Below are positions 35,075-56,480 of a stretch of DNA of 64,000 nucleotides, in pieces; position 1 is the stretch's first letter, and every line of letters begins with the position of its first letter. The translations under genes and the position numbers were made by a program. The notes below the pieces were generated by a model. The model was given only the letters and a program-made list of their open reading frames with translations. It was not told the origin of the DNA and searched no databases. The DNA lies in assembly GCA_044892525.1 (NCBI GenBank), contig CM097885.1, positions 240,498,001 through 240,562,000 of the forward strand, given 5' to 3'. The DNA is from Schmidtea polychroa. Its lineage: Eukaryota.

Positions 35075-38000
35075 ATGAGATTTAGTTTGTCAAATTGCAT
35101 ATTTATTTGTATTATTTTCTTTTTTGTGCTTTTATTTAGTAAGTTTTGTCAATTTTATTTTTAGTTAAATGAAAAAAAAACAATTAGATAAGTTGTAAAT
35201 TGTTACTTAGGTTATTTTATCAACGAAATTCAGAAACTAAACAATGAACTTTTTTTAATTAATCAAGATTTATCAAATCTACATAAAGAATTATTACAAG
35301 TAGAAAAATTTCAAAATAAGCTTAAGTTTGTTAAATTAGTTATCATACTTAATTTTCAACTATTATATTTTTAGTCCTAAGAAAAATAAAATATTTCGAT
35401 CTCATAAATCACACACCAAACGTATTTTAGTTAGTTTGTTTATTACGTAAATCCATTTTCATTTTATGAGTAGGTTACCGGAGGAGCTGGATTTATTGGT
35501 TCTCATTTAACAGACGAGTTAATTTTAGAAGGCAATGATGTAATTGTGATAGATAATTTTGCTACTGGAAAAAAATCAAATATTGAAAAGTGGTTAGGTC
35601 ACCCGAATTTCGAATTCATCCATCATGATATCATAAACCCGATTTGGTTAGAAGGTTGTTGTGACTTTGATTATTTGATAATATAATTTCATATATATTT
35701 CTAAACGAAATTTATACTGGGAATTTTTTTGTATAATTTATTAAATAATTGTTTACTATTACATTATTAAAAATAATATAAACATTTCTACACAGTTAAG
35801 CATTATAAGGGGAATGAAAGTTGGATTTATTTGATTTTTGTTAACTCAGTTATTTAACTACACAATATAAATATAATACTCAAGTAATAATTAATTTTTG
35901 AAAATAGTTTTTATAATAAAATTATATTAAAATTCGGTAGATAAAAATAATTTAAAATGCCTCAACAAAAATCAAAATAATCGATTTAATTTTTTTGTAA
36001 TTTAGAAATTTTTTTATCAACAATATTTTTGTTTGAAATAATAAAAAATATGATTTTTTAATATTACTGCAAAGTCTCTTACATCTTTTTCTATCGTATG
36101 ATGCTTGAAATTGACAATTCTTCTGTACGTTAATGTTTTCGACTCCGTCTCTATAGTTACCTCTTATCTCTTCTGTCAACTGGAAACTAAAATCCTTGCC
36201 TGCAATATTTATTATTTATTTTCGAATCCTAGCATTGATAGCTAGGATGTTATAGGAAACCTGAAGAGGCCATTTGGTCAAGTGTACCCATGTGATACTT
36301 GATAATGTTATAAAATATTCCTGTTTCTGAAATACCATCGCAATCTTCGGTAATTCTTGTCGTATTACATATAAAGTAGCAACCAAATTAGATTTTTTTG
36401 CAAGCATTTCGATGCTATATTTATCGGCTTATTTGGAATGTATTGTGTAAATTGGCATCTAGCTTTTGTTTGGAACAATTACTCATCGACTGTTATGTTT
36501 CCGTTATTCTCAGGTACTTCTTTTCATTTTATAAAATTGTCTCTATACATTGATTGGGAGAAAACAGTCGAATCTTAATTAGACTACAAATTTAAACATT
36601 TTGTGTTTTTGTCTCACATGCTGCTATAGTATATAAATTTGCTACAAAGGCTCATAAATATGATTTTGGAATTCTCTATTCTTTATTCTCCATCGTAAAC
36701 TCCTTACCGAGTCAAACATAAAAAAATAATTGTACTTAAACAATATTCTAGTGAAATCATAATATATTATCTAGTACTGCATTTTCAATTTATTTGAAAA
36801 ATCGATTATGTGATTAAATTCTTTATTTTACGCCGTGATAACAATCAGCAAATATGTGATCAATTGCAGACAACTTATATCTACAAAGCAATATATCTAC
36901 AAGTGGGTTATCCAGTTCAAACAAGGTCAACAGTCAGTGTTTGATGATGAGAACGTTTGTTGTCCTGGAAAAACTCTGACTATAAAAGAGGAATGTTTGG
37001 AAATTGCGAAGGAAAAATGTAGAATCACTATCGAGTATATATCACGGCGGTTGAATGTGAATACCGGAGGTGTGCATAAGAAAATTGGCATTCACTTTCA
37101 TCCCACGTTTTCTTTCCTTTGAAATATGTGAAAACCGAAGGGATTGCTGCCAGACAAACCTTCTCATTTTGATGAACATGATAACCGATTCTGTGTGGTC
37201 TCCTTTTATGGGTCCTCCAAGACAACGCATCAATCCGCAAAGTGCGGAAACAATGGCAGAGATTTGCAAAAAAGAATTTGTTCTCTTATACCACTCTCTC
37301 TACTGTCCTGACTTTGTACCCAGTGACTTTTATCTATTTATCTACATTTGTGATTGAAAATCTACCAAAGTGCTATAGATTTTGAACCGATTGTGGAACT
37401 TTTCTTTAAAAACCAAAGCCAAATTTTCTTCAAAATTGCCTCTTTGGAACTCTTGCACCGTTGGAGATACTGTGTGAACAATATAGCCAGCAATAAAGCC
37501 TATATACCCTTGTTGTTCTTATGTTAAAATATCAAGGCCGGGTATTTATTGAACGCACCACGCAAAATCTTAGACATCTTCGAACATGAAATAACTCGGT
37601 AAACTACCTCCATCTCTATCTTTTTTCAATGTTTCTCAAAACTTCCTTCATGAAAGCCCTGCATTTCATGTGTTTTGAAATACTGAAAAATTAATTTGAG
37701 TCTATTCGTAAATATAGTGTTCATATGAAAAAATTATGTGTATGTGGCCTAGAAAAAGGAAGAGATTCTTTTAAAAAACTTAAGTGTAACCACTGTCTGC
37801 TGAAACTGTAAAATATAGAATGGTCAAAATGTTTTCGAAAATAACCAATCATCAAATCGAATATCTTAAACTGGTTTCAGCTTTGTCAATAGGTATTGAT
37901 GAATCTTGTGGTATAACTGATAGAGCACACGTTTCACTTTTTGTTCGATTTATTTCGTATACCGGTCCTAAAGAAAAACTCTTAGATTTATTATCACTGA

Positions 38001-41000
38001 AAGGTCAAACACGTGGTGAAGATACTGCAAATGCTGTTATGGAATGCATGGAGAAATATCATATCACACTGAAGAAAATTATTTCAATTTCAACCGATGG
38101 AGCAAAAATTATTGTTTTTATTTTGAAGGACAGAATAAATCACGAGAAACTTTGTACCATTGCATAATTCATCAAGAAGCGCTTTGTTCAGACATTTTCA
38201 GAATAAATTTCCAATGTTATGGAATTGATCATCAAAATTGTTAATACAATTATAGCTAGAGCTCTTTATCATCGCTAATTTGAAGAATATTTAGATGAAA
38301 TGGGGAGTAAATACGCAGATATTCTGTTCCATAATAAGGTACGTTGGGTCTCAATAGAGAACTTTTAAAACTATTCGCCTTCTTATTATTAGAAATTAAA
38401 CTATTTCTCCTTGAGAAGGGTGTTGAATATCCTGAACTAAAGGACGTTCAGTGGATCCAGAAATTTTATTTCATGGTAGATGTTACGTCTCATCTAAATA
38501 CTTTTAATCGTAAACTACAAGGTAAAAGAAAGATTGAAAAGAAAAATTGACATTTGTTATTAAAAAAAAAATTTAATGTGAGAGAACCTTTTCTACGGAG
38601 GTTTCAGGAATTCAGAAATAGCATAGCGACGTTAGACTTTGTTAATAAACCACGTAGTGCTGTAACAGAATTGAATTTCTCTCTCTTTACTATTGACATT
38701 AGCGCTTTTGAAATGCAATGGGTGGAGTTAAAAAACAAAGAATTACGGAGTTCGAAATTTGAACGTCTTAATGCAGAACTGGAAAAATTAGAGAAAAACA
38801 AATGTTGTGGCAGTTCACAGCAAAAGTGGTCTGCTTTGAAAAACCTTGAGAAGAAAGACATGATAATTGATAGCACCTGGAAGAGTATCTTACGATCATT
38901 TAAAAAAGCTACCATTTGGTATTCTTTCACTCTTTGACTTTACGTATTCATGCGAACAATCATTTTCAAGCATGAACCTCATCAAGAATAACCTAAGAAA
39001 TAAACTTTATTTATCTACCCGAATCAAAAAATTGCTGTTAATGACAATGAGTAAGAGGTTCTGGAATCCTAATTGAAATTAAAAACAACGACATACAAAT
39101 CAGACTTATCAAAACTTCTGATGGTAATTGTCTATTTTGTATCATTAACAGCAATTTTTTGATTCGGGCAGATAAATAAAATTATCTCTCCTACGAATTT
39201 CTATTTTCCTATTTAACAAAATTTAAATTTTAATCGTTATTTTGTAATAAAATATGAACTTTAATCTAGGAGGAACGAGAACTAGATGTGTAGTTACTTA
39301 TTGTTTGTGTCTTATCTATAGCGATTCGTTATTTTTAGATGCTTTTTTTTGTTTCACTTGTTTATTCTAGTTAAATCTTGTAAGTAAATTTTTGCCCATT
39401 TCCACATTAACGATTGACTTGAAACTTTATGCAAATACGTAGTTCCAATTGCAATATAATATTCAAAAATTTAAATGCAGAATTATAAAATATCAAATTC
39501 TAAAATCACCGAGCCTTACATCGCGGTTGTTTTCATCAATGCATGATTCCTTTATGTAATATTTGTTTACATTCTAAGAAAATACTGAAAATATTTGTTA
39601 AATATAAAATACACATCGATGAGTTCAAAATAATAACATATGGCCTACAGACACCAAAGTAAGTCAGTTAATAATTATTTATCATAATCTATTAAGTTCA
39701 AAATAGTCTTCTTTCCCTCCGAAATGCAAATGACATCTTCTATAGATATGGTAGCAAGTTATTTTTTCAATGTTTCAAATTATGCTGTGTTTTTTTCTTT
39801 CAACTCTTATTGATTTCTGAGTTTTTTATTGTAAACTTTGTCTTTGATCAGAAATAAGGTTCACCATCCAAATGATTTCACTAATATTACTTAAACATGC
39901 CAACATAGATAGAACTTTGTTTTCTAGTATCTTAGTTAATTCTAAAAGCACAATTGTGTGTATTCAGACTTCGATCCAGCTTAAGTTCAAAGATCCTAAT
40001 CCTGGAAATCATCGCATTAATTTCTAACTGCTCAATTCATTTTGTCTATATTGCTTATCATAATTGAGTGTTTGTTGCAAGTGAGAATTCAAGTTTCTCC
40101 ATTAAAGTTCTTTTAATATTTCTTAGCAAAGTTGTTATTGGAATTTCCCAGCTTACTTGAAGATATCCATTGCAATCTTTTTGGAGTTTTGCCAACGGTA
40201 TTTTATGCTTTTCTCTCAAAAATAAGTCTTTCTGATAGTTGTGCTTACATTATCGATCTTGTTTTTTGAATTCTTTTTATACGTTGTTTTACAACTCTAT
40301 GGGATATATTCTGGTAATTATTTTCGAAATTTCAGTTTTACTAAATCACTCATTTTGTTCTGGCGATAACTAAATTTGCTCTGAATTTAATCAACTTTGA
40401 TTGCCATAATTCAATCTTAAATAAATTTAAAACAATTAAATTGGAATATTAGCTGTATTTTATCCGAAATTTAAATTTGTCTATAAAATATTGTTATTGT
40501 AAAGGAATTTCTTTGCCATCTTAATTCAAAAAATAGGTCACAAATCTTAATGTTAACCCCTTTATAGTCGATCAAATTTACCACTTGGCATCACCTGCAT
40601 CTCCTTTGATTTATATGAAAAATCCAATAAAAACAATCAAGACCAACACAATGGGAACTGTAAATATGCTGGGCTTAGCGAAACGCAACAAAGCAACATT
40701 GCTTTTGGCGTCAACATCTGAAATTTATGGCGGTAGTTCATTTTCATTCTTATTTTCATCGATGGAGATTTCTTTATAGACCCTAAAGAACATCCTCAAA
40801 AAGAAACCTATTTTGGGAATGTAAATATTTTTGGCCCACGTTCATGTTATGATGAAGGCAAACGATTGGCGGAAAGTCTATGCTATGCTTATCACAAACA
40901 AGTATTAAATTTAATTTTCAATTAATCTTCACCAATTTTTGCGCAAATTTAAAAACATTTATACTCGATTGAATCTGAAAATTTTTAAGATGTCATATTT

Positions 41001-44000
41001 TGTCTTTGTTAGATTTTTAGGTTTAACAGGCCAGTAAAACAAACTAAAACTCTGAAAATACTTCTCAAAAGATTCAAATATTTACTTTAATTTTTCTTTA
41101 TTTTTATAAATCTATTATTTATGGCATAATAATTACTTTTATCATATTCGTGAATAAAATCAGTTTTGTTTAATAAAATTATAAAACAAAAAATAATTAA
41201 AATAATCCCAGAGGAAATAACCAAAAGTCAAATAGAACATTATAGACTAAAAGTCTATTAACCCTACAATGGCGCTGATGCATATATTCAACAACCACTT
41301 TCTTACTTAATATATTTGTATGTCAAGTATCATATAACGATTTAATTGGTTCGTGTATATCTAAATCAACCAATCACACGACTTGTGGCATAGTTGGTAA
41401 AGTCGAGTGCTGTTTTACTCATAAATTTTACAGATGAAGTAAACATTTTGTCAATAAGTGCAACACGTGGTCCGTTTCAGTTTCAAAGCTTAATAAGTTG
41501 TTATTTATAACCAAGGTAGGTAATCAAAAAAATTTAAATTTATGTGTAAATTTATGTGTAAATTTATGTGTAATGTGTGAAATAAAATTGACGAAATTTG
41601 CATATTTATGGCTATCAACGAACAAAGAAGGTGTGATTCATATTCGAATCACTGCGCATTTGTATAACAAAGCGAATTGAATATTGTGATGTAAATATTC
41701 TTGAATTTATACACATTATTTGATCGTGGATGTACTTTTATATGATCACATTTTTTTCATTATTTCAGATGCCCTTTATTTACAAAAATTAATCAGAAAA
41801 AATGAATTTAGAATCTCTGAATGCTGATGAACTATTTGATCTTATTTACAACATACCATGTGTTAGTGAAGATGAATTGGATATTATCGACACAAAAGAT
41901 ATATCTGAAATAGCTCATGTAACACAAGAAATTTTGGATATCCGTTTTCAGTGGACAGTTGTAGAAGAAATGCTTGAACAACCTTCTACATTATCTTCTG
42001 TATCTATTGGAGTTTCTAAGTCAAGAGCATTGCCATGGAAAGAAAGAAGAATAAGAAAAGTGCAATGTACATTTACTGGGACAAGAATATTGCCTGATAA
42101 TATATGATCCTTGCAAACACCTGTCGAGGAGAGCAGAAGGTATAGCATTTCAAAAAATCCAGAAATAATATTTGATTTTTCAAAAACTCTACTTATTAGG
42201 TATTTGGGAATATGTATTATGTCATCAGTTGTATATATTTCTAATGTGAGGATGTATTGGAGTCAAGTAAATTGATATAGCCCGAAATGTTGAGTCAAAA
42301 ATATTTGAAAACAAAACGGTCTAATTTACATTTCAATGATAATTCGGTTATTACAGAAGATAGGAGGAGGAAGGAAAAAATTAACGTGTCTTGTCCAGCT
42401 GTTGTAAAACAGTACAACGAGCACGTTGGAAGAGTTTATTTGCTGGACAGCTATATTGGGAAATGTAGAATAAGAATGATGTCTCGAAAATGGTACATTC
42501 TACTGGACATTTTGATTATAAATGCATGGCTTTTATATAGGAAATGCAACGAACCTTATAGATTTCAGACTTGAATTGGCTTAGGTATTGTGCAATATTG
42601 GATCACACAACACACCAAAATGAGGTAGGCCTTCGGACATACAAAGAGAAATTGAAAAAAAAACAAAAATCAAATGTCACTCCACTTCCTCCGCAACATC
42701 CCGGTCTAAGTGATAAGACAATAGACGATGGTGATTCCCAGTGTTTTACCGCTTTAGTATTAAGCCAGAATGTGGTTAATACTTTATCTTATTAACCCTT
42801 CTCAATATTAAAATTAAAGTAAGACAGTATAAAAATGATTACTAGTACTTCGTTAGTGTAAGTAATTTTGATTAAACTAATACGAATAAATAGGTCATAC
42901 CAAAAACTATTTCCTTGCTCGCATTGTTGTCTATGGCTTAACAATTATAATTTTTAAAAATAGTGGTTCGAATGGTTCTAAGTTCCATTTTAAAATTAAA
43001 TATATTTTCTTATTATAAGAACTTTTTTCCAATGAATTTATTAAAGAGACCTGAAGACTATAAATCAGTAATATATCGATGTTTTTTGATGCTCACGAAT
43101 TTTCACCACTGCCTTTTTCAAGTGAAATTCACTGATTTAATATATCTCTCTTTTTAATATATTTTCTTGCTTTTAAGAATTTTGAAATTATAGATTTCTT
43201 CTACTTATAATTAGTAAGTAGCTTAATGTTAAATTTATTTAAACCTGATTTTGTCAGACAGTTCAAATTTTTAGGTGACAATACGAAGTACTTATATGCT
43301 GATGCTAGCTTTATTTACATTTTGCATAAAATTTTATCGATAATATTAATTCACAAGAAAAGTTTCTAATGTACTAAAATATATAATTATCGAAACTTTA
43401 GAATAATGTAAATTTACTATTGACACCCTGAGAAATAATATTAATGCAATTAATGGAAATTATCCATTATGTACTGAAACTTAAGTGTAATACAAAATTA
43501 AATTGAAAGTTTCAGCAATTTGTTAACGTGTTTGATTTTCCAAATTTTGTATACAAAGAAATTTTTAGGACTTTATTTTTTATCGTTTGTAAAATAACTA
43601 TCATTTGCTGCTATCTGAAAAATTTCTTTACTGAAAACGTTTTTTGATTGTTATACAGATTGCTGGTATTGTAATTGTCATTTTTCGTGATTTGTGAGCA
43701 AATGATGTACAGAGTACATTGTATATTTTACAAATTTGTAGGTTTATACAATTTCTTATTTGATTGATTGTCACAAATTAATATGAATTGCTACGTGTTA
43801 AAATCGAAGACCATAAATTTAAGAGATTTCAATTATTTTAGAAAGGTTTATGGAAGTTTATTTTTTAACTCGGTGATGCCTTATTAAACATAAGAGTATA
43901 AAAAACAGTATCAACTTAATGTTATCCTAGAAATTGGTTTACATATTGAATCTTTAAGTTTCTCTTTTAATAAAATTAATTAGCAATTAATACAGATGTC

Positions 44001-47000
44001 CAGGAGAACGGTGAATTTAAATATATTGATTAGAAGTTGTCTTTTTAATCAATTCTTGCATTTTTTAATAACTAATATTTTTGATTCTTTTAGAAATTAA
44101 TGGAATTTAAAAAAGAAGTTATTTCTCATACTACATGCTAAAATCGAATCTAGGATGTAAGAATACCCCATGTAATTGGTTAGGAACAATATGGGAAGGA
44201 AAACAACACATAGAAGAATGTACGCATAGACTCAATCGCTGTGAACTATGTCAACAAACGATCAAAGTAAGTGAAGAAAAGGAACACCAAAAACTAATGT
44301 GAAGAAAGACAAGAAAAATGCGAATATTGTGGAGAAACAGATACATGGAAAAACCTAACCAACAAACATAATCTACAAGAAGAGAAATTGTGTGCAGAAT
44401 TCACAAGTGAATTTCCGAACAGATGTAATAAAAATGGAATGCTAAAGTTAGCGCAACATCTAAAAGAATGTGAAAAAGAAAAGAATAACATGCATATTGG
44501 AAAAATGGGGATGTCAGAAACAACTGAATAGAGAAGTGTTATCATAACATTTGGCAGAAAACATAACGGCACACACCGAGATGTGGTCGGAAGCAATACG
44601 AGAAAATGAGGATAAAACTAAACAATTAGAGAAAGAAATTACCTCATTAAAAGCACTAATCAGAGAATTACTAGAAGTTAGAGAAGCGTTTGAAGAAGCA
44701 AGGGCAAGTACAAAAGTACAGGCAAAATTAATAGAAGCAAGACACGAAACTATCAAAGAGATGTATGAAAAAGTGAATGAAATAAATTTAACAGAGGTAA
44801 TACCAACAGCACCATACATATGGAAGATACAAGGAGTGAAAGAGAAAATACAGAGAGCAAAAAATGGAAAAGATACAACAATAATGAGTCCAGCATTCTA
44901 TTCATGGAAAAACGGATACAAAATGAAATTGAAAGTATATCCCAACGAAAATGGAATCGGATATGGAACGCATTTCTCAGTATTTTTCCTACTATGTAGG
45001 GGAGAAAATGACGAACTATTAGAATGGCCATTTCAAGCAAAAATCGATATTGGGATGTTAAACGATCAAAGTATACATGAACAATGTTTCAAAGCGTCAG
45101 GAAATCACATATGTTATCAGAGGCCCTTGTAAAGAGAAGGATCAGAGTCCGGAGCGCCTAGCTTCATCTTACAACGGAAATTGGAGGATATGGCAAAAAA
45201 TGATACTATATACATAAAAGTGTCATTAAGGAGAGAAGGAAAAGCAGAAGAGAGTAACAAGAGAGGAGAAAATTTTTTATATAATAAATTTGTAAATATC
45301 GTTGTATATATCCCAATAACGTTGTATATGATAATATTATGGGTCACCCAAGCACCATAATCTAAAAATAAAGTGAAAAAATAATCAATTTAATAGTTAA
45401 ATATCAAACGAAAATAAGGTGTAAATAAAAATTAACCCTATAACCATTCAGAAAAAATTACACAAGAGAAAACCACAACCCCAAATCAGATATCAACAAC
45501 ACCAATCAACGAAGAAACCCGGAAAATGGAATAAAGTAATGCACCAATTAACAAATAGAACCATAGCCTATATAGAGGAGGCAAGAGAATTGGATTTTCA
45601 TCAGTCCCAATGGGTGATCCAAAATTTACGGGCAGAGGCCGAAGCGTGTAAGAGAGCTGCCAAGTGGTCAGCATTAGAAGCTACCCAACAAGAATCCCAT
45701 AGTCACTACTTAAAGCAGTTAGTGAACGAAGCAAGGAAAAGGTCAAAAGACATGAATAAAAAATGAGATAAAGAAAGAGAAAGAGATGGGAGAAAAATCA
45801 ACAATCTTCTAAGAGAGGCCAGAAAATGGAAGCGAGAAAATAAAGAATTACGAAAACGAATAAAGGAACTGCCGCAAAAATTAGGACTAGCCGACGATCA
45901 GGAGAAGTAGGAGGAAAACCTTAATCAGAAAGAGGAGCTAAAAAGACTCAGAAGAATCGCCGCACGTAGTCAAACGTGGCAGAAGAAGGCGATGGAGTTC
46001 GAGAGGCATATGGCAATGAAACTGGCCATTAAAGAGCAAGAAAACCTGGAAATGATCCTACAACAGTCAGGAAGAATAGTAGAACCGGTGAACAAATTAG
46101 CAGAGCTCGAACGAGACAGCAACGGTTATAAAGGAGCACTGGAACAAAGGAACATAGTGCTAGCCGGAAAGAACAAGAAGCTTGAAGACGAAAGAAAATG
46201 TATGCGGAAAATATTAAAAACCTGGAGAAGGAGATAGAAAAATGGAAAAGCGGTGAAAAGACAGAAGGACTAGAAAAACAAATTGAAGTGAGAGATGACG
46301 AAACTAGATATCTAACGTATCTCCTAGATGAAGAATTAAATATATACAGGGTATTAAGGGACGAGGTACATGAGCTGAGACCTCAGTTGCCAAGATACTA
46401 CGTACCACATGACCCTATTGCTATCCATCTAGGATCATCGGTAGAAAGCGACGAAGGTTACGGTGGACAGGAAAAAACATTTGTATAGATAAATTAAAAT
46501 CGAAAAAATCAAAAAATACGGAACTGTATCCCAAACAAAAAAAATTAACAGTATAATTTTAACAATACAGGGACTGTAATCCTATGTATATAAAACATTA
46601 CGTATAAATGTATATGTATAAGTCGCACCGTAGCGCAAATATTAATCTGTAAATATTGTAGAAACGTGAAAATGAAAACGGAAGAAACAAGTAAAACGTC
46701 AACAACCGAAGTAGAAGGGGAAATCGAAATAGAAATAGTAGAAAGGAAGAAAACAATAAAAGAGGAGTTACAAGAGGAAAAACAACAAAATGAAAGGTTA
46801 ACAAATAAATGGAGAGAAAATCGGAAGATGGTAAAAGTGCTGAAAAAGGAATATGAATTGCTAGAAGAGGTAAAGAAAGAAGTGGAGGAAGAAAATGAAT
46901 GGTTACAAGAACAACGAAAGCGACGGAGAAACTGGGAAAAGATCGCGGAGGAATTATGGCAAGAAAGAGCCAGCCATAAGGCAGAAGAAGTCATCGAGGA

Positions 47001-50000
47001 CTATTGGAAAACAGAGGCAGAGAAACGTCAAGAAATAATAAAAGAACTAAACGAACAACTAAGAAAGAAGCAACAAGAAATTAAAGAGATGGAAAAATGG
47101 AGCCGCAGATACCAGGAAATAGAGACAAAATATCAACAACAAAAACAAGGAAACAACAATCGAGAACAAGAAAATGATTTCCTACAAATTGAATACGAAC
47201 GAAGTCTAGAAAGGAAGAGAGAAGAAATCAGACTACTGAAGAAAGAAATAGGACAGTTAAGACTCGAAGCCCACGAAAAAGACAGACAATTAGAACTGCT
47301 ACCCGAGTTAAGACCCAGGTTCATAAAAGCAGAAACAAAAATAATGAGGTTGTCTGAGAAAGCCCATAAAAGAAAACCCTATGATAACTAATGATAGCGA
47401 AAAGTGATGTAAATAATTACAAACAAAATATATAAAGATTGGCTATATTAGTATTATGCGGAGTAGAATAATAGTAACGATAATGATAATAACTGTCAAT
47501 CTGGTGGGATTACAACAAGCACCCTCGCAATTAGAAAGTATTCAAGATCATCGAAAATCCGATCGCAATTCCAACCAAGAAGTACATCATAATACGAACC
47601 CAAATGCTATAAAAATGGAAATCATCGAATCAATTCGCATTTATATCAACAATCTACGGTTGATATGCAACCCCAATCCTACAGGCAAAATGATGAACAA
47701 AAGAATACTAAGTCAAATTCATCAACTGGAGCAGCTGGAACAAGAAATCAAACAGCAAACATTCACGAACCCAGCTGGAAAAACAGAAAACCCAGCCGAA
47801 ATAAAAGATACCCAGAACCTCCTATACGTGGTAATCGCAGAAACCACATTAAATACCATAATCATCTTCGTAAAATTATATGAAACCCTCAAAATCTGGA
47901 AAATTAACAACCCAGTAAGAACAAGACAGCAAATAAACCCCCAAGAAGCCGCCATGGAAAATAACACCCCGACAAGTTTTCAACCAAGAACACCCGTAGC
48001 CGAATCTAACCAACTATTACAACACCAGATCCCAAGATTAAGATTGACATTTATCAAACTATCGTCATATCGAAACTATTTATCGATTGTGTATCTGAAC
48101 TATTGGTGCAATTTGTATATAAACCTGGTCACCTTAAGTGACCACTGCTTGCGTAAAGTTTGACATTTATCTTTTTAATAATTTTTTTTGATTCGTTTTA
48201 TTAAGTAATTTTATTATGTTATGTATGTGAAATGCGGGGCGCAATTTTAACGGGCCCCGGAGTGATTTGTTGGGCTGAATTTGACTGTGGTATTAGACTG
48301 AATTGGATGTGGGAAAAAGTCAAAAATAAAAATGAATAAGTAAAAATTCAATATTAAATAAACTAAGTAAGAAATAAACCCTAGAATAAAGAGAGTCGAA
48401 GGTATTACTAAGAAAAATTTAAACAAATAATAGAATAAAAATAAATCAGTTAAAAATAAAAATCACAAGAAACGGAAACAAGTATAAAGAAACAAGATAC
48501 CAACCATGGCCAACAGACAAAAAGATAAAAAATAATTAAATAAAAATAACAATTAAGAGAATAAAATCTTAATACGAAAAACATAAAGTAAGGGCATAAA
48601 ATATTAACTAAAAGCGAAAGAAAATTAGAAATAGGCAATTACACACAAAATTATTAACGAAAATTCACAAAAATTACACAGAAATATAGGAAATCAATAA
48701 ATTAACAAAATAAAACAAATAAATAACCCAAGAAAAACATTTAAATTATAAGAAATAAGGAAAAATAACCAAAATACAACATAACTCAGTCCTGATTGGA
48801 CAAAATATACTATATAAGGTAAAGTCATTCGCCTAACCTCTTAAAAATCCTTACTCAGAATCTAATATTTGCGAAATCCATTACAGGACTATACAAACTC
48901 ATTACGGGACTATTAGACATCGACTTCACGAAGAATTATTTGAACAATAACCGTTTAAAGAGCATTGACGAATATTAATCGACTAATTTCTACATCAAAT
49001 TCAGTCTATCAGTTTGAAAAAAATCAATTGAAAAGAACAAGTAAATGCTTGATAATTTTTTGGTATTCATAATTGATTGTTATGGTATTATAACTTTTCA
49101 TGAGATAAAATATTATATTTAACAGCATTTTATGACTTTTCTCTTCACGGGACTTGGGACGATGCCGTTTGGGAACTCTGAGTATGATGGTCATGAACCG
49201 AAAGTGCGAGAACAATGAATCAACAACGATGCAATTTTCTGAGGATATGCGATTTGTTTTCAGGTCAAGATGATAATTTTAGCATGAAATTAAATGTATG
49301 AAAACTATGATGGAGGGCGATTGAATCAGACGTATATTGAATACCTTTAAAGAATGAATCTTAAGGATAAGATCGGATACGACACATCATACTCAGAGCC
49401 AAAGGACATGGTCGCTAGGTAGATTAGATACATTTATAATTTTTATTAAAAACCAATGATTTCATTTATAAAGTTTTATTCATATACATTTTGATATTTG
49501 CATTCTATTTATTATTATGGGTATGGTAGATCCGTCTTTCGTGGTGGTCTGGAGACGGTCGGTAGCAATACCGGTGGTCCCCAGGTAAGCCATGGTAAGT
49601 GGAGAAACCAATGAAGTGAATATATAAAAGTTAGCGTAATTCCATGAAATAAGTGTCTTCATCGAGGAGCAGCCAAATGAAAATAAGTCCATTTCAGTAG
49701 TTTTGTGAGGATTACCAGTTGTCTCGAAAATTTCGAACGTTCTAGCAGACGAAGAAACGCATGATCTTCAGAGAGAAATTTAATCTTCCAAAATGTCAGT
49801 CGTAATAGTATACGGAGAAACGTCCGACCCAATCATTAATAGAGAATTTGCATCTTTAGATCTTCTATCGTTGGACGACCAACTTCGCCTGAACTCTCGC
49901 AATTATTTCCAACATCCAGTTAATCGTCGTTGTCAACGCCAGCAACAAGAGAAATACTCTCACATGAAGTTGTAGATCCAATTTTGGCATGTAGATTCGG

Positions 50001-53000
50001 ACATTGGGTGAACATCAGCATAATTTCACATTTCGCGATTCCGCCCTGATAAATCTTCGAACTCGTTCACTAAAACGTCGAAAAGTTATTGTAAATATTC
50101 TGTACATCCGGTCAATCGAGGTTTAAATATTTATCGAAGATACTATTCCGAAACTGTTTTTCTAAGATTCATAAGCGACGAGCGGATCAATAGCATAAAC
50201 GAAGTCAGATAGATTTGAACGTTGTTAGAAATTGATAAATCCTTGTTTACATCGTCGGTTCAATTAAATGAACCTGAGAATCACATTAACTATTACATTA
50301 ATCACCGGGTTAATATAAACGAATCCGAACCAGACGATGTTAGTTCGGGGTAATTACCGTTAAATAATTTAAACAATTGTTTAGCACAAGAAATACAATG
50401 TATGAGATGATATCCGGCGTAATAAATCGCAACTAAGATAACCAAATGAACAATATACAACTATTTAATTTATATAATAATGATAGTACTTTACTTCTGA
50501 ATTTGTTCTCTTTTATAAATGTATATTTCATTTAAATGATTATTAACAAAGGTAGAATTTTAGAGTTAAGAATGACACGTTCAACGCGTATTACACGGAC
50601 TACACTTAATAAGATGTAAAATTTCTGTAAAAATTGGGTATTAACAATTTCTTAAACAGAATTTATTGATCAAATCTCGCACTCGATGATTAAATTCCCG
50701 CAATGAAATTCGATTTAAATGGTACGGGGAGTAAAAATACATCGATGTTGTCTACATGGTAGGAAGTGGGAAACTATTATTGAAGCATCTAATAACTCTT
50801 TATGACGAATTTTCGTGTATTTCGATGAGCCATCTTAATTAATTTAGATACGTGCGAACCAAGTTTACCGTCAAAATGGCCACAACCATGCTTTTCTTGT
50901 GCAGATAAGAATGCAGACAACAGAAAACTGCATGAATATATAGGGGTTCTGAAGACGAGTATTGAGACGCTCGAATGCACGTGTTTCTCCCCGCCACAGA
51001 TGAAAGAAGAAAAGACGAAGATACTACAGCTGGAGCACTGCAAGGACAGTCTCCTCGAAGAAAGCCGTTGTCAGAGGTTGACAGTTAAGTTCAATTGGAA
51101 GCACTACATCAGGTGTATTCCGAATCAGAAATACGGAGAAGGGTACAAAAATACCCGATCAAAGATGGGACAAACGTGTTCCCCTTGCATCACCGGGATG
51201 ATGAACAGTAGTTACCTTTAACCAGTTGTACTGGACATGGATTTGAGTTTCCACCAATAATCGACCCAGTTTTGTCCGATTCATCAAAGGGACACTGTGT
51301 TGCCAAGGAAACAGCTTCTACTTCGTCGTCTGGTCGTCTAAATAAGTCCACCACATTATCTTTGAAAAAACGAAAGTGCCCCTCTCGGGCTGAAAGAAAC
51401 CAGGAGCGCCGAGACGAAATCGCCGCGTTAGAGGTGTCACTATTTGCCGTCCAGGCTTTGAGCGCACAAATTCCCAAAGAAAAGACACCACTACCAAAGG
51501 AATTTTATCGAATCGTTCCATCAGGGACACTCCGAATGATGCCCAGCTACAAGTAGACATAGATGCCCTGTTAGCCGAAGAAGATGCCTTCAATACTACT
51601 CAAGATTTGATGAATAGCATCCCGAAATCTAAATAACTCTTCGTAAACTTTGATCATTGAGTACCCGGCAAATTCGTATATTTTCTATCTTATGTAATAA
51701 ATGTTGTTAATGTTTGTTTTTTGTCTTATTATTGCTGACTAGCTTGCCTGAGTTGGATTTCAACTCATTTTGTAGTATATGAATTTTGAGAGAGTAAAGT
51801 CGTCCCCTTGGACCAGGGTCGTACTGTCTTGCTTGATCGAATGAGGTAAGTCCTTCTATGGCACTCCGGAACCCGCACAGTGAACCGCGCCGGGAGTAGT
51901 TCTACCACAGGGGCTCACCTGCTGGTAGTTTCCGACCTGCGTGTGCATCACCAACGTGACACATTATCATGGGTACTTGTATGGGAGATTATTGTCAAAT
52001 AATGAAGGTTGCTTAGGGAACCAAATCTGAGCATGTAAAAATCCTTCCCTCAGTGACCAACATTAATAAGATATAAAATAAATTAATTATCAAATAATTT
52101 AATAAATATTAATATTTTAAAATTTATTTATATTTTGCAATATAAATTAACAAAGATGCATTTAAATATTATATTTAAAATCAAAGTTTAATTAAATTTA
52201 AGACTGCATTGAAAAAATCTGCTGTTATTAAAATAATAACAATTCATTAAGAATATCCTGTCTTTTTTCTGTTAAAACACCTTTCCTTCGTTTTATTTCT
52301 AACTTTAATTCATTGTGGAATGATTCATGAATGATTCATGAATTATTTATTTATTAATTAATATTAATAAATAAATATTACTTTTTATTTATTTTCGGGG
52401 GTTAAATTAAAAGGCATATTATTATTGGGGTTAAATTAAAAGGTTGATCCAAATTTTTTTATTTGTATTAAATATGTTATTCGCAGCAAAGGCTTAAATT
52501 ATCATTTAATTTTTTTTAAATAATAATAATTGATAAGAATTATTTTTTAATCGAAAATTTTAATTTTAAGTTTTATATATATATATATATATATATTTAT
52601 TTATTTGTTTATTTATTTGTTTAATAATAATAATAATAATAATAACAAAAATAATAAAGTCTTAGAAGTAGTAATAATACAAAGCCCACAGATAAGTGAA
52701 AATTGTACTGTCAAATGAAAATGGTAATAATTTAAAAACAAAAACAATTTAATGTGAATTACTAGGCTTCTTTTTCTAAGTTTAAATTTAAAATAAAGAA
52801 TATTTTCATTTATTTATATATTATCACTTAAAAATGAGTACAAGTTTTCTTAGATATTGAAAACAAATTTCGATAAGTACAATCTATTTTTGGAACAAAT
52901 TATATTGTTGCTATGGTCAAATGTATTCTCAATTTCATCATTTCATCACAGGCTCATTGTTAGATTGTATTTGTTATGATTTATCTTAGTTATTTACGGT

Positions 53001-56000
53001 CAATTTGATAAATTTTCCAACACGTTGTAGACCGCTCTGGGAATGTAATGCAATGCAGTACACGGTTTTCATGATATTTCTAATATATTTTTGATGTCCC
53101 TTGCTCATTCGTTCACATTAAATTATCATTACATTTTTTATATAATAAAAGTAAAATAAAACACTTGAGAATGTCACTAGTTGTCGGTCGTAAAAAATGT
53201 GGGATGGCTACCTCATATTCAGGTACAATTCGTTATCATGAAAGTAATTCACGAAAAAATAAAAAAAATTCAAAATTCAGTTGGTGCTCATGTTGTGATC
53301 GTTACTATAAAATAATCGAAAAACTTCAAAATATACATACAAGTTACATGATAAATTACAAATTTATATTCATAAAATAATCCGCCAGTGATTCCAGACA
53401 AAAGTCAGCGATGATTTCTTAATTGTTGTTTATTTTGATAGACTATGTCTACTAGTGCATGCCTTATTGGTACAGTAAATGACCTGTGAGCCTTTACAAC
53501 TTAGTGTAATATGAACAATGTCCTATTACTGGCTTGTATTTAATTGAGTCAATTGATCTATCAATAATAAGGATTGGAAGGTCAAATTTCATTAATTCAA
53601 TAATAATAAATAAATAAATTACCCCATAGCATTATTAAATAAACAGTTCTAACGAGTAATTTGATATTTTGCACTTACATATAGACAAGTTATGTGAAAT
53701 AGGAAATGCCAAATTCTTAAATTATAAAAAAAGAATCGTACTTATCTGTTTACAGTTGAATGACACTTCACGACTATCAATGTAAATATAATATATTTTA
53801 TTGCATTTGATAATTAGTAAAAAAAAAGGTTAGAAAAATAATTTCAAAACGTGTTACTTATCAATTTCAATAAAACTTAGTTCAAATTTGCACGATTTAG
53901 ATTTATTTTCTTAATTTTTCAATATTTTTGGTAGATCAAATTAAATATTTAAATTTCGAAATTGAGACTTCATTTTTATCCACATAGTTTGATTTTTAAC
54001 AAATGAATGCTATATTTTATTAGAAGAATTTTTGGATTTTTGGGACTTTAGGAAAATAAAATGAACGAGTAAATATAAAATAAATGTTTTTTATTTGATT
54101 GTAAACATTTACGAATATCCTATATTATTGGTGTGACTAAAACTTATTAAGATTTGACTTTATTATTATTAAAGTCGGTACTGAATCTGACTCCACATGC
54201 TCTTTGTCTCAGTTATTAAGATAACACCCAACACAAAACATTTAATTAAATGTCAGCAAATTTGATACAAAATTTTCGGTTTCACTCCTTTTGTCCTGCA
54301 CTCTTTAATAAAAATCGAAAACAGGTGACCCTGGGGAGTTTTGGCAATGATTTTTCACCTTTATTCAAAGATCTCGTTTATCTAATTCAAAACTAATCAT
54401 CGTTATTGATTTTAAAAAGAGGCCTAATTTCTTTGGTCTATAAATTTTTGTACATGGAATCCGAGTATCGTTAACAAAGCCATTGCTCCAAAGGGTTAAT
54501 GGATTCACACTATAGTCAAGAGGTCAGTTTGGTCTATGGATTTTTTTACATAGAATCCTACTATCGTTAACAAAGCCATTGCTCTAAAAGGGTAATGGAT
54601 TCACACTATATGGGTCCCAAGGATTTTTTCCATACAAAATCCGACCCTAATTAAAAAAGACAAGGTTTTTTTAAGGTCTATATAATTATTTGTATGCGAA
54701 ATGCAGGTCTCGTTAAAAAATTGAAGTATTTTAAGGGCTATAAAATGCTTCAGACCAAATGTCACTAGGGGTCGGGTACTGTGATATTCAAAAGTATTCC
54801 ACAAGCAAACCGTAAGGAGGAATATCATATTTGCCGTGGTCTTACCAAACTAAGCATATGAAAAATGCATGTCATCGCGTCGTCCAATTGTTGGGGTTTG
54901 ACTCGTGCAGATTAGCGTATTATGGCTAGGATAATAAGTATAATAAAAATAATAGGAAAATAATAATAATTACTAAAAATAGCATTAATTTATTACTTAA
55001 AATAAATTATAAATAAAAATAGCATATTAAATTTACTGTATTTAGATAAATACTTATTATAGTAATTTATAAATATATATATATATATAATTAGTAATTT
55101 ATAACTACTAAAATTAGATATAATAGAATATAATTTTATATAAATAAGATTAAGTTTTTAGAAAAAATTAGATAATAAATTTTGTGCGAAAATCAATATC
55201 GATTGATAGCAATCAGCAAAATTATTCGAGAGATCAATAAGCAACAGCTGCGGTGATTTTAAACCAAATAAGAAGGTAAAATCCGGAGAATTTAGGACAG
55301 CTGTCACCGAAAAATTTCGTATTTAAGGAAAAGATTTTTTGGAAGAAATTATTCAATTTTTGATCAAACATTTCTGCTTCGACAAAAATAATCAAAAACA
55401 CTAAAAGCTATATAAGCTTGTTTGCAAAGTTCAATAAAATTCTTAACCATAAGGTTATTTGGATTTTATTTATTAAATTAATAAATTCAGCTGCACAACT
55501 CGACCGCGAGAAGCAGCATTTCTGCCTGACTTACTCGTCGGATATAAAACTTTAAGAGGGAAATAACTAGGTAACGGTAGATCGAACTTGGTCTACACGA
55601 TCGCGCAAAATTCGGGAATTCCCTCATCTTGTCCCATTCTTTTATACAGCGCTGTGAGTCATTAGTTCCAGCGTTTGTGCTTTATCTGAGGACGGTTTGA
55701 ATAACCGATTTCTTTGCTTAGAGTTGAGCGGCATTTTTGGGAAAACATTTATTTATTTTTGTATAATTGTGCATAGCTAATAAAGTTTCTATATATACAT
55801 TCACGTCTTATTTAATTCATATTAAATTATTTATAATTACACGCACATATTTTGTATTGATATCTTTGGAGTCAGATATAATCTGTGTTAGGAAGAATCA
55901 ATCCACCTGATCAGAACCTAACAAAATTAATGTAACAAATTATAACATATTATGGCGGTAGGTTGCAATTTAATAAAAATGTATTAATTTGTTTAGAATA

Positions 56001-56480
56001 AAGTTTATTTTGGATATTCAATGCAATTTTTATCTGTAGATTAATTTCAAGCTTCTTTATGCATCTCATTAAAAGTAAATGTTTACTGAAACATCTAATG
56101 TTGACTTATCTGATTTTATTAAAGTAAATATTTAAAATGCATTTTTACTCAGTCATTTTCAATATTTCCAAAACGATTTGGAATTAAAATTTTCATTTTT
56201 TTATTATTTATTCGTTTTTGTATTATTCAGGATTTTGCTAGACTGATTTTATCTTTTTTTCAAGTGTATTTTTATTTTTTCCTTATTTAATTTAAAATTA
56301 GAGATTTATTAATACGTATTTCTAAAAATTAAATTGTTGAATTTTTCCAATTTTATTTAGGATAATGTATCTATTAGGATCGCTAGAATTTTTAATACAT
56401 TTGGACCAAGAATGAAGCATGATGATGGGCGAGTTGTTTCAAATTTCATCTATCAATCATTAACAAACAAGTCTTTAACG
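35075..56480 (+). CDS. UXS1: UDP-glucuronate decarboxylase / UDP-xylose synthase (7 exons seen; 3' exons not found in the window)
   Basis: Exons 35075-35138, 35211-35325, 35375-35429, 35474-35654, 40568-40732, 40780-40901, 56361-56480 with consistent phases. N-terminal signal anchor ([14 protein letters not shown]), [49 protein letters not shown] (YxxxK), [19 protein letters not shown]. Confidence 0.95.
36150..36600 (-). mobile_element. Internally deleted piggyBac remnant
   Basis: Minus strand [24 protein letters not shown] joined to C-terminal fragments ([20 protein letters not shown]). Confidence 0.75.
36760..37563 (+). mobile_element. mariner transposon remnant
   Basis: [17 protein letters not shown] (HTH) and [18 protein letters not shown] (decayed YSPDLAPSD). 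Right TIR-like GGGTATTTATTGAACGCACCACG. Confidence 0.8.
37660..39110 (+). mobile_element. hAT transposase pseudogene (GTF2IRD2/SPIN-like)
   Basis: [73 protein letters not shown], broken across several frames. Confidence 0.9.
41262..42790 (+). mobile_element. piggyBac element remnant
   Basis: TTAA-CCC left end. Fragments [52 protein letters not shown]. Confidence 0.75.
44100..45360 (+). pseudogene. TRAF: Intronless TRAF-family gene (TRAF Zn fingers, coiled coil, MATH/TRAF-C) with a C-terminal hydrophobic tail; disrupted
   Basis: [47 protein letters not shown]; then [47 protein letters not shown]; same frame past TAA 45130: [39 protein letters not shown]. At least 3 frameshifts and 2 stops. 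Confidence 0.88.
45500..46488 (+). pseudogene. Disrupted coiled-coil ORF (~330 codons) in the retroelement cargo
   Basis: ORFs 45539-45766 and 45992-46237 are in the same frame, separated by two in-frame stops. A frameshift near 46200 leads into 46198-46488. E/K/R-rich heptad character throughout. Confidence 0.6.
46666..47391 (+). CDS. Intact 241-aa E/K-rich coiled-coil protein (retroelement cargo)
   Basis: Uninterrupted ORF (in-frame ATG at 46672) with TATATAAAA at 46587 upstream. No recognisable family. Confidence 0.6.
   Translation: MKMKTEETSKTSTTEVEGEIEIEIVERKKTIKEELQEEKQQNERLTNKWRENRKMVKVLKKEYELLEEVKKEVEEENEWLQEQRKRRRNWEKIAEELWQERASHKAEEVIEDYWKTEAEKRQEIIKELNEQLRKKQQEIKEMEKWSRRYQEIETKYQQQKQGNNNREQENDFLQIEYERSLERKREEIRLLKKEIGQLRLEAHEKDRQLELLPELRPRFIKAETKIMRLSEKAHKRKPYDN
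47456..48163 (+). CDS. Intact 235-aa predicted type I membrane protein (signal peptide, short coiled coil, TM) in the retroelement cargo
   Basis: [18 protein letters not shown] (signal-like), [36 protein letters not shown] (TM-like). TATATAAAG at 47429. Confidence 0.6.
   Translation: MRSRIIVTIMIITVNLVGLQQAPSQLESIQDHRKSDRNSNQEVHHNTNPNAIKMEIIESIRIYINNLRLICNPNPTGKMMNKRILSQIHQLEQLEQEIKQQTFTNPAGKTENPAEIKDTQNLLYVVIAETTLNTIIIFVKLYETLKIWKINNPVRTRQQINPQEAAMENNTPTSFQPRTPVAESNQLLQHQIPRLRLTFIKLSSYRNYLSIVYLNYWCNLYINLVTLSDHCLRKV
48268..52062 (+). repeat. 3.8-kb LTR
   Basis: 6-bp perfect inverted termini TGTTGG/CCAACA. A G-rich motif sits immediately upstream in the PPT position but is not a clean PPT. 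A-rich U3-like start, AATAAA at 51696 with a T/GT-rich tract, GC-rich U5-like end. Confidence 0.65.
50975..51636 (+). pseudogene. Decayed ORF inside the LTR
   Basis: 194 codons in one frame from ATG 50975 to 51556 with only two internal stops, then a shifted tail ending at 51636. Confidence 0.5.
54430..54646. repeat. ~96-bp tandem repeat, ~2.3 copies
   Basis: TATCGTTAACAAAGCCATTGCT..GG.TAATGGATTCACACTATA repeated at 54466 and 54562. Confidence 0.85.
54889..55923 (+). mobile_element. Solo-LTR-like element (1035 bp)
   Basis: TGTTGGGGTT...AACCTAACA termini, internal TATAAAA and AATAAA, near-matching 4-bp flanks (CAAT/AAAT). Confidence 0.6.

Follow-up and report, generated by a model that had tools for sequence, protein, structure and literature searches.

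A decayed Burro-type giant retroelement tail with a TRAF-led gene cassette in a UXS1 intron of Schmidtea polychroa

A 64,000-nt stretch of the Schmidtea polychroa genome (GCA_044892525.1, contig CM097885.1, positions 240,498,001-240,562,000, forward strand; hereafter the window) carries, within an intron of a UXS1-like (UDP-glucuronate decarboxylase) gene, the decayed 3' tail of a Burro-type giant Ty3/Gypsy element (44135-52062, Table 1). The tail holds a TRAF gene, two coiled-coil genes (CC1 and CC2), a signal-peptide/membrane gene (SP-TM) and a 3,795-bp LTR. The UXS1-like gene lies on the same strand, with PF16363 exons at 35474-35638 and 40567-40734 (Pfam), and the exons bordering the intron encode ...YDEGKR...YHKQ and DNV..., in agreement with the intronic placement given in a preliminary description of this DNA. 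That description also listed four tandem, co-oriented, intronless units, of which the order and orientation stand (44135-48163), whereas only CC2 and SP-TM are still open. The A-skew that it reported was borne out as well, with an AT skew across the cassette of 0.33-0.45, the highest among the window's 64 one-kb bins.

Table 1. Features of the element remnant and its host intron (window coordinates)
Feature	Position	Strand	Evidence or remarks
UXS1-like intron holding the remnant	40902..56360	+	GT and AG ends
Left break	44133..44135	+	DNA likeness to relatives begins here
TRAF remnant (zinc fingers, coiled coil, MATH)	44135..45246	+	Pfam TRAF-mep_MATH 9e-21
Spacer 1	45291..45427	+	TGTAHATA at 45291, 45303, 45420
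CC1, coiled-coil ORF	45524..46488	+	72-77% identity to relatives; ~345 codons there
Spacer 2	46585..46662	+	TGTAHATA at 46585 and 46648; acceptor-like TAG 10 nt 5' of CC2 start
CC2, coiled-coil ORF, open, 239 codons	46672..47391	+	65-69% identity to relatives
Spacer 3	47408..47455	+	TGTAAATA 17 nt past CC2 stop; TAG 4 nt 5' of next ATG
SP-TM, predicted type I membrane protein, open	47456..48163	+	hydropathy peaks at residues 5 and 121; alignment
Best-conserved non-coding block, directly 5' of 3' LTR	48215..48267	+	91-96% identity among distant copies
3' LTR, 3,795 bp, TGTTGG...CCAACA, then TTAA	48268..52062	+	multi-copy; best relatives 72-85% over kilobases
Broken LTR-encoded ORF	about 50850..51560	+	~253 codons in relatives

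The TRAF remnant, 62-66% identical to the 462-aa RING-ZnF-CC-MATH protein of intact relatives, has lost residues 1-88 (the RING) and carries two frameshifts and in-frame stops at 44545 and 45130, while CC1 is interrupted by stops at 45764 and 45908 and by a frameshift near 46195. Upstream of TRAF residue 89 nothing of the element is left: the 5' LTR, the primer site, gag-env-pol, a 119-codon ORF and the TRAF RING are all missing; no other match to 43170-44132 was present among the scored candidates, and a search of the 64-kb window found no further element parts. The C-terminus of the window's SP-TM diverges from that of its relatives, and a predicted TRAF-docking motif is lost there. We regard this copy as very probably functionless, and an action of the decayed copy on its host as unlikely. 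At the 3' end, TGTTGG (48268) and CCAACA (ending at 52062) are the true LTR ends, as had been proposed; three solo LTR copies with identical ends carry 4-bp target duplications (ATAT, ATAT and TTAA). The block directly upstream probably represents the plus-strand priming region. The LTR also contains a broken ORF of ~250 codons that the preliminary description overlooked; it has a frameshift near 51090 and a stop at 51209 in the window, and a dN/dS of 0.07 between two young copies.

Full-length relatives could be recovered from the same genome, and they place the cassette in a giant element as a virus-like accessory module, as suggested earlier. Three of the first four regions inspected contain 25-30-kb elements (the fourth holds two partial tails), whose LTR pairs of 4,039-4,230 bp are 99.5-99.9% alike and enclose gag-pol and the cassette. 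Across all full-length relatives examined, LTR pairs were 99.5-100% alike; one such relative measures 30.1 kb, with 3.9-4.1-kb LTRs. Relatives have paired TG...CA LTRs and 4-bp target duplications, of which the window keeps the 3' LTR only, and a primer site 7 nt past the 5' LTR of a relative is complementary at 18/18 positions to the genome's tRNA-Pro(UGG)+CCA. Pfam domains in a full-length relative follow the order Retrotrans_gag, CCHC, Monjiviricetes fusion protein (PF24664), protease, RT, RNase H, integrase and ankyrins, with the env-like Monjiviricetes protein between gag and protease and a weak ubiquitin-like match (E 0.015). In one further copy the gag-env-pol-ankyrin domains occupy a single 4,617-codon frame. 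The region before env yielded an all-helical model (pLDDT 53) with a profile match to Bcl-xL at E 1.9, and its top three Foldseek matches, all with E ≥0.6, were BCL-2-family proteins.

The pol tail and CC1 adjoin TRAF at all 30 TRAF loci examined. Among 1,890 candidate TRAF copies, the 92 that were scored were all full-length at 92-100% identity (84 stop-free), hence at least 92 copies exist. A single-copy host gene cluster, or cargo of a Polinton or other endogenous DNA virus, is thus a far-fetched explanation of the cassette. The latter was raised by the closest cassette relative (79%), which adjoins polB, A32-like ATPase, integrase and pX-like genes, but this relative starts with the ankyrin tail of the retroelement's pol, the TRAF beside Polinton-like genes was otherwise unmatched among 40 scored candidates, and all 30 cassette TRAFs above are linked to pol. 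Linkage of the cassette to polB, ATPase and capsid genes within terminal inverted repeats, as expected of Polinton/Maverick cargo, was not borne out.

A Burro1-like family in this genome has a 4,688-aa ORF with an internal MATH domain, together with a BIR-RING ORF. It is 57% identical to the window's family over env-pol and has the small ORF, TRAF, CC1 and CC2 in common with it. CC1, which has no Pfam family and for which a database homologue search was empty, is 31% identical to its Burro1-like counterpart (E 3e-23), and CC2 is 33% identical to a 261-aa ORF (E 1e-9); the SP proteins could not be aligned between families. Since the window's family lacks both the MATH domain in its polyprotein and a BIR ORF in its cassette, both of which are found in the sister family, it is Burro-type but not Burro1. 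Its sole TRAF is a whole RING-ZnF-CC-MATH gene 3' of pol. It may correspond to Burro-2, -3 or -4; a search for a third Burro family found none.

The cassette genes evolved under purifying selection. The proposed comparison among copies gave dN/dS values of 0.13 (TRAF), 0.07 (CC1) and 0.16 (CC2) between two young ones. Between the window and a young copy, pN/pS was 0.17/0.71 for TRAF, 0.16/0.85 for CC1, 0.18/0.78 for CC2 and 0.35/0.63 for SP-TM, with pS near saturation; a 35% identity filter removed SP-TM from three of the four selection comparisons. SP-TM is the fastest-changing gene of the cassette and has been swapped between subfamilies, with TRAF staying nearly identical.

The TATA-like boxes and AATAAA signals noted previously between the genes did not hold up. 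In the window's three spacers, TATAWAW occurs 5 times against 3.1 expected, which is at chance level (418 of 2000 shuffles as high), and AWTAAA 3 times against 5.9; the supposed TATA box at 46587 is the end of a TGTATATA motif that begins at 46585. TGTAHATA occurs 6 times in these spacers, against 0.34 expected. In one 30-kb element, all 9 plus-strand occurrences fall within the five spacers (expected 0.72; matched by 0 of 2000 shuffles), as do 11 of 13 in a second subfamily and 7 of 10 in the Burro1-like family, the motif having been defined on one family (family B) and tested on only one other. By comparison, it was found in 1 of 30 host TRAF 3' regions. Spacer motifs number 33 on the plus strand versus 1 on the minus strand, usually start 14-23 nt past a stop codon (the CC1-CC2 spacer and one pol-ORF spacer have no motif close behind the stop) and read TGTATATA or TGTACATA in 16 of 33 cases. 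In addition, 11 of 18 ORFs have a YAG that ends ≤5 nt 5' of their first ATG (background 0.17, p 4e-5). We did not find this pattern, with TGTAHATA confined to cassette spacers and YAG before most starts, in the published literature. Taken jointly, the identity, truncation and decay of the remnant, the linkage to gag-env-pol and paired LTRs, the purifying selection and the spacer motifs leave us with hardly any doubt.

The spacer TGTAHATA and acceptor-like YAG suggest processing into single-gene mRNAs. A single LTR-driven transcript would be spliced, in cis or in trans, onto the YAG ahead of each ATG, and the tandem UGUAHAUA past the stops would be sites for a binding protein, their consensus being most like PUF/Pumilio elements; judged on DNA motifs, this model is about evenly balanced. 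Alternatively, each cassette gene could be driven by an internal promoter and end at a poly(A) site of its own, with TGTAHATA serving a DNA-binding factor. TGTAAATA includes a forkhead-type DNA site, with which GTAAATA is compatible; moreover, TATAWAW exceeds shuffles in one young copy (16 versus 8.3; 36/2000), and the motif pair ends in AATAAA in some spacers. However, TATAWAW is not enriched in the window, the second subfamily or the Burro1-like family, AWTAAA is enriched in none of four sets (these three and the young copy), and element spacers are as short as 44-90 bp. The strand bias, the position behind stops, the YAG ahead of ATGs and the recurrence of two motif forms also argue against internal promoters, which we consider unlikely. 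An ordinary 3'-end signal is disfavored by the absence of UGUA upstream of poly(A) signals in S. mediterranea (PMC5068929, partial text).

The TRAF of intact relatives consists of RING, zinc fingers, coiled coil and MATH, with TRAF3 and TRAF2 as best PDB matches; compared with the TRAF2/3 type, its MATH domain retains hot spots 1 and 3, and the serine triad by which TRAF2 holds the central Gln is replaced. SP-TM is predicted to have a hydrophobic N-terminus, a small helical ectodomain, one TM and a cytoplasmic tail (AlphaFold gave helices for a relative, pLDDT 54). Docking of this tail on the element TRAF reached 0.62, against 0.02 for the best of three controls, with ≥86% contact agreement between runs and a partner pLDDT of 60. 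The docking mark is passed by 51/78 solved versus 2/108 mismatched microbial pairs and by 71/105 solved versus 2/126 unrelated eukaryotic pairs, for a tool that has no benchmark on peptides or disordered chains and was not fed our own alignments. In the model, P163-V-P-E166 contacts K355, Y357, D361, F372 and T427-G-A429, the equivalents of TRAF2 hot spots, in a register matching that of the Px(Q/E)E motif (PMC6125299, partial text). The 163-166 motif was chosen post hoc, as the better conserved 172-177 had been expected to dock. The form [PS]-[VML]-x-E is present at this place in 10 of 15 (related) SP-TM rows and is absent from five, which include the window copy and one young subfamily; a strict motif also arises in 3-16% of shuffled tails.

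Hence, SP-TM may be a ligand-independent TNF-receptor mimic (LMP1/CD40-like), a tentative reading that we place somewhat below even. Its membrane-proximal [PS]-[VML]-x-E would sit in the MATH groove of the element's RING-bearing TRAF, and the docked TRAF would steer ubiquitin-dependent survival or immune signalling where the element is expressed. Such docking of an SP-TM tail on its own TRAF was not found in the published literature. A competing possibility, just short of an even chance, is that TRAF targets host receptors or adaptors (as a decoy or degradative ligase), with SP-TM otherwise employed (particle release, re-infection block) and the docking reflecting likeness to solved complexes. 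The absence of the motif from a third of the rows and the rapid change and exchange of SP-TM beside a nearly constant TRAF are consistent with this alternative, as is the tool's own warning that passes may reflect memorised structures, here solved TRAF-peptide complexes. On the other hand, docking controls stayed at 0.02 or less, three natural copies have PVQE/SVQE exactly, and PMEE is present in the membrane-protein tail of the Burro1-like family (31% shuffle chance).

The preliminary description further proposed that such elements seeded the host TRAF family, which we consider improbable in the form of domesticated Burro TRAFs founding the expanded family. Our survey covered the best 150 of 1,551 MATH candidates. 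Two element-free single TRAFs (L107 and L147) cluster with element MATH domains (support 79/73), several host TRAFs are intronless, with frames of 450-475 codons, and the AU test does not reject joint host-array/element clades (p 0.14 and 0.19). Nonetheless, the 24 host-array rows group on a branch of their own (support 85; 89/90 for the 13 retained), 0 of 37 non-element rows (35 distinct) are nested in an element clade, and cassette neighbours lie within 1.5 kb at 0 of 30 top-scoring host loci. Among the best 150 matches, ~64 were assigned by frame length to the sister family as element-borne (3 checked). MATH/TRAF transcripts are reported to be greatly expanded in S. mediterranea (121 domains, PMC6109357; 282 contigs, PMC7586133, the main text of which contains neither 'transpos' nor 'Burro'), and piRNAs target the mRNAs of traf and ankyrin genes (PMC6824462). 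Because at least 92 near-identical TRAFs of one family and the ~64 sister-family matches in the S. polychroa genome are element-borne, planarian TRAF counts and RNAi may mix element and host genes. In the widest reading, Burro would be a self-contained receptor-adaptor switch with a spliced or SL trans-spliced operon-like cassette under PUF-type control, and hundreds of element TRAFs would explain much of the planarian 'TRAF expansion' and the traf piRNAs; we find this unlikely as a whole. As an overall explanation, we consider it probable that the 5'-truncated, decaying Burro-type tail in the window stems from elements whose cassette likely yields separately processed mRNAs and likely rewires host TRAF signalling, with SP-TM predicted to recruit the TRAF of its own element. 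Burro elements are abundant and recently active, with known apoptosis and ubiquitin domains, and a role for their cargo was deemed worth experimental confirmation (PMC6431247, partial text); the predicted binding pair and the specific acceptor sites and motifs offer two direct tests.

The remnant is of a mostly known kind. Burro/GYPSM1 giant Ty3/Gypsy LTR elements of Dugesiidae planarians were reported by Jurka 2007 and Grohme et al. 2018 and are reviewed in PMC6431247, cited here from part of its text. They resemble the window's family in size (~30 kb, multi-kb LTRs), accessory ORFs, MATH/TRAF, RING and coiled-coil cargo, and one polyprotein with Gag-CCHC, a ubiquitin-like domain, an env of mononegavirus type set in frame between gag and the protease, RT-RH-IN and ankyrins. 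A polyprotein of 4,600-5,100 aa with env in frame between gag and pol, and a BCL2-like domain before env, are taken as marks of Burro; the review detected, by HHpred, a dUTPase-like domain between protease and RT, for which Pfam and phmmer gave no match here. It locates MATH within ORF1 in S. mediterranea and in an ORF further upstream in D. tigrina. Interference of Burro cargo with apoptosis and ubiquitin signalling is an idea already published in the review, the available text of which is silent on an LTR ORF, a membrane ORF, spacer motifs and a receptor-TRAF pair. Several short co-oriented genes behind pol, gaps of <300 bp, YAG just 5' of starts and an ORF overlapping the LTR recall complex retroviruses and foamy-like fish ERVs, which have accessory genes at the 3' end, as well as flatworm SL trans-spliced operons (partial texts of PMC12582326 and PMC8629364), although the window's element is Ty3/Gypsy. 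Flatworm SL acceptors are UUNYAG (same partial texts), whereas several acceptor-like sites of the element, known here from DNA, read ATTATAG. The predicted pairing of SP-TM and TRAF resembles EBV LMP1 and TNF-receptor-family tails (CD40) on TRAF2/3 in its membrane protein, Px(Q/E)E-type motif and predicted canonical MATH groove (PMC6125299, partial text; see also PMC10776578), a likeness of motif and groove rather than of sequence homology. In contrast to LMP1 and CD40, the binding here is a prediction, SP-TM has one TM helix, and the TRAF is encoded by the element itself rather than borrowed from the host.

Comparison with intact relatives and a six-frame view placed the cassette units and the long terminal repeat (LTR) where the preliminary description had put them (table below), and the UXS1-like intron proposed there as the host site was borne out. 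The positions of all four reading frames held, but only CC2 (a coiled-coil ORF) and SP-TM (a signal-peptide/membrane gene) are open. The TRAF gene begins at residue 89, so that the RING is gone; its frame shifts near 44295 and 44464-44510 and is interrupted by stop codons at 44545 and 45130. In the other coiled-coil ORF, CC1, stop codons lie at 45764 and 45908 and the frame shifts near 46195. The window copy is a fossil. It shares 68-71% DNA identity with young copies and 77-83% with other fragments, and belongs to an older subfamily. AT skew is 0.33-0.45 across 44-48 kb of the window. Elsewhere the window holds two diverged helicase-like gene copies (which we take to be RecQ-type), inverted to each other and 77-86% alike (290-715 with 4718-5062, minus strand; 31475-31804, plus strand). 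Further mobile remnants comprise two with long terminal inverted repeats (24062-25816 and 27865-29254; arms of 423 and about 550 bp), one within the same UXS1 intron that is presumably piggyBac-like (41802-42600), and a gypsy-like pol (61008-62469, minus strand).

Coordinates of the cassette remnant, its host intron and one whole relative (window positions unless a contig is named)
Feature	Position	Strand	Basis or remark
UXS1-like gene intron, 15.5 kb	40902-56360	same as remnant	contains remnant
TRAF remnant	44135-45246	+	six-frame view, intact relatives
CC1	45524-46488	+	six-frame view, intact relatives
CC2, open	46672-47391	+	six-frame view, intact relatives
SP-TM, open	47456-48163	+	six-frame view, intact relatives
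LTR	48268-52062	+	both ends verified in three solo copies that carry 4-bp target duplications
Whole-element example, polyprotein interrupted	G000:C1 (contig of the same genome) 204,619,895-204,649,978

Both the cassette (64 matches) and the LTR (78 matches; 40 scored candidates each) are multi-copy in this genome, and whole elements of 25-30 kb, with gag-pol linked to the cassette between LTRs that are 99.5-99.9% alike, were recovered in three of the first four regions examined. Their order is LTR (with a 253-codon ORF), tRNA-Pro primer site, 159-codon RING ORF, gag, a weak ubiquitin-like domain, fusion-glycoprotein env, protease, RT, RNase H, integrase, ankyrins, 119-codon ORF, TRAF (462 aa), CC1, CC2, SP-TM and LTR. 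The primer site is complementary to tRNA-Pro at 18/18 positions and lies 7-8 nt behind the LTR instead of directly at it; tRNA-Pro(UGG) genes form 475-bp tandem arrays (G000:C1:130.90-130.95 Mb and elsewhere), with 2,186 pattern matches genome-wide. The LTR ORF encodes a protein of about 253 aa in both LTRs of intact relatives (e.g., locus L027:2656-3417; counterpart in the window copy at 50850-51560), preceded by TTTAG, with a CxxC, a coiled coil and a basic cluster; it is under purifying selection and matched no Pfam family. The linkage to a Polinton or DNA virus that had been named as an alternative was not found, the cassette being tied to retroelement pol. A Polinton-like element with polB, A32-like ATPase, integrase and pX-like genes (G000:C2:110,240,000-110,251,000; loci L023 and L024) has a single-copy TRAF gene on one side and a head-to-head pair of Burro tails on the other. 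Relatives from the window copy's own subfamily are likewise joined to the pol tail, and the nearest of them adjoins Polinton-like genes by chance. TRAF as Polinton cargo is rejected, the Polinton-side TRAF gene having no second match among 40 scored candidates.

As had been proposed for comparison among copies, pN lies far under pS in the cassette genes, indicating purifying selection. Between the window and a young copy, pN/pS values were 0.17/0.71 for TRAF (368 codons), 0.16/0.85 for CC1 (316 codons), 0.18/0.78 for CC2 (226 codons) and 0.35/0.63 for SP-TM (188 codons), and within one pair of young copies dN/dS was 0.13 for TRAF, 0.07 for CC1, 0.16 for CC2, 0.07 for the LTR ORF and 0.02 for RT. 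These values suggest that the cassette was of use to the element during the divergence of its lineages and that the window copy was broken afterwards. In the same young pair pS is patchy (MATH 0.03, RT 0.17, CC2 0.60, LTR ORF 0.69) and the SP-TM proteins are about 20% identical, a pattern that points to the exchange of modules by recombination. Eleven tandem SP-TM copies, four with a stop, are spaced at about 1.5 kb at G000:C1:186,484,232-186,500,021.

The window's family holds at least 92 full-length TRAF genes, 84 of them without a stop, and at all 30 loci checked the gene lies between pol and CC1. Among the best 150 of 1,551 MATH candidates, 13 sit in frames of at least 2,400 codons and 51 (hand count) in 487-codon frames; the three such loci examined are Burro1-like elements, members of the sister family. 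Many others of these best 150 matches lie close together on contig C2, in frames about 180-210 codons long, with no cassette neighbours within 1.5 kb. Large host TRAF arrays occupy about 1-5 Mb and 105-124 Mb of this contig, and in two members that were sampled the peptide-binding hot spots are altered. In MATH trees (65 rows by quick search, then 34 rows after removal of 31 close relatives and duplicates), the host arrays form a separate branch and the element domains group weakly (69/81), while AU tests did not reject joint host-array/element clades. Hence, the elements inflate the TRAF count; the trees neither establish nor reject the suggested seeding of host TRAF genes. Two element-free TRAF genes, L107 (C3:47.375 Mb) and L147 (C3:82.735 Mb), join the Burro MATH domains weakly (79/73) and are candidates for a donor lineage or domesticated copies.

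Genes behind pol require their own mRNAs or another translation route. In one element, all nine plus-strand matches to TGTAHATA, which equals the PUF/Pumilio consensus, fall within the spacers between cassette genes (0.72 expected), as do 11/13 in a second subfamily, 7/10 in the Burro1-like family and six in the window (0.34 expected); for each of the four sequences, 0 of 2000 shuffles were equally high. The first match lies 14-23 nt past the stop in 12 of 16 spacers of intact copies. For 11 of the 18 ORFs of the two families, the first ATG has a YAG ending no more than 5 nt away (background 0.17). The TATA and AATAAA motifs noted earlier in the window's spacers are at chance level. According to two flatworm studies, YAG acceptors serve both cis- and spliced-leader trans-splicing and operon gaps are under 300 bp (PMC12582326, PMC8629364). 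Given the spacer motif, the YAG pattern and these precedents, we prefer, at about even confidence, a single LTR transcript that would be processed into single-gene mRNAs, and consider internal promoters unlikely. TGTAHATA follows host TRAF genes in 1/30 3' regions, and UGUA is reportedly absent ahead of S. mediterranea poly(A) signals (PMC5068929), which together rule it out as a general host 3'-end signal. Among the listed matches of contigs from three presumed-RNA runs and one other run to a young copy outside the most abundant subfamily, neither a GT-AG joint nor a leader-like loose end was seen, a result that carries no weight either way. In contigs of two presumed-RNA runs, each from a different study, the TRAF RING region is joined to SP-TM through an AG..CT joint (L029:1630-5045), which most likely reflects a deleted element copy and is not a splice.

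In intact copies the TRAF is complete and most like TRAF3/TRAF2; of the peptide-binding hot spots, 1 and 3 are retained, but the serine triad is not. SP-TM resembles a type I membrane protein. Co-folding of MATH with the SP-TM tail of the same young copy scored 0.62 against 0.02 for the best control (three runs, at least 86% of contacts common; partner pLDDT 60). The score mark is reached by 51/78 solved and 2/108 mismatched microbial pairs and by 71/105 solved and 2/126 unrelated eukaryotic pairs, peptides being outside this calibration; moreover, since TRAF-peptide complexes have already been solved, the docking pass may reflect likeness alone. The model places SP-TM P163-V-P-E166 in the canonical MATH groove, in the Px(Q/E)E register described in PMC6125299. 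At this position, 10 of 15 natural SP-TM rows carry [PS]-[VML]-x-E (PVQE or SVQE in three), and five, including the window copy, lack it. The site that had been expected, a TRAF6-type (P/S)QExx(M/L) at residues 172-177 (12/15 rows), gave no confident docking. That SP-TM and TRAF form a receptor-adaptor pair is accordingly offered as a tentative reading of the model, somewhat short of even; the fuller proposal, that Burro carries a receptor-adaptor switch (SP-TM and RING-TRAF) spliced from an operon-like, PUF-controlled cassette, is improbable as a whole. The C-terminal end of CC1 is formed by a conserved acidic DEG[YF] motif (window 46450-46475) that the Burro1-like family also has and that resembles beta-TrCP degrons; such a likeness would fit NF-kB or cell-cycle interference. 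A TRAF search returned 17 distant matches (24-28% identity) and none close, so proteins of the element-bearing lineage seem to be missing from the database searched. CC1 found no homologue among 8,000 candidates, and the SP-TM profile had no match in 1.84 billion representatives and no usable one in Atlas, its AlphaFold model (pTM 0.20) being too poor for a fold search; CC1, CC2 and the LTR ORF are without detected homologues, and CC1-CC2 paralogy is not detectable. We found no published retrotransposon/TRAF/LMP1 link in planarians, no account of UGUAHAUA in retrotransposons and no prior description of the spacer motif, acceptor pattern or SP-TM/TRAF pairing, although the primary Burro paper (Grohme et al. 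2018) and Repbase may already show the 3' ORFs.

Searches via env and BIR found no third Burro family: the three regions examined for env were all other elements, and the BIR list was mostly 392-393-codon frames, Burro1-like in length. A distinct high-copy env-bearing element (L208-L209, L218-L219) has a 3,319-codon ORF and no LTR pair over 1.5 kb. The Burro1-like family carries genes homologous to the small ORF (E 3e-16), TRAF (3e-87), CC1 (3e-23) and CC2 (1e-9), and its last cassette place holds a membrane gene not alignable with SP-TM. Burro itself, its MATH/BIR/ankyrin cargo and the 'tinkerer' idea are already published (PMC6431247), and the presence of Burro elements points to a triclad flatworm as host. 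The architecture of Burro/GYPSM1 described there agrees with the intact elements of the window's family, bearing out the view of the window copy as the tail of a Burro-type giant element, and the sister family fits Burro1, with its 4,688-codon ORF, internal MATH and BIR-RING gene.
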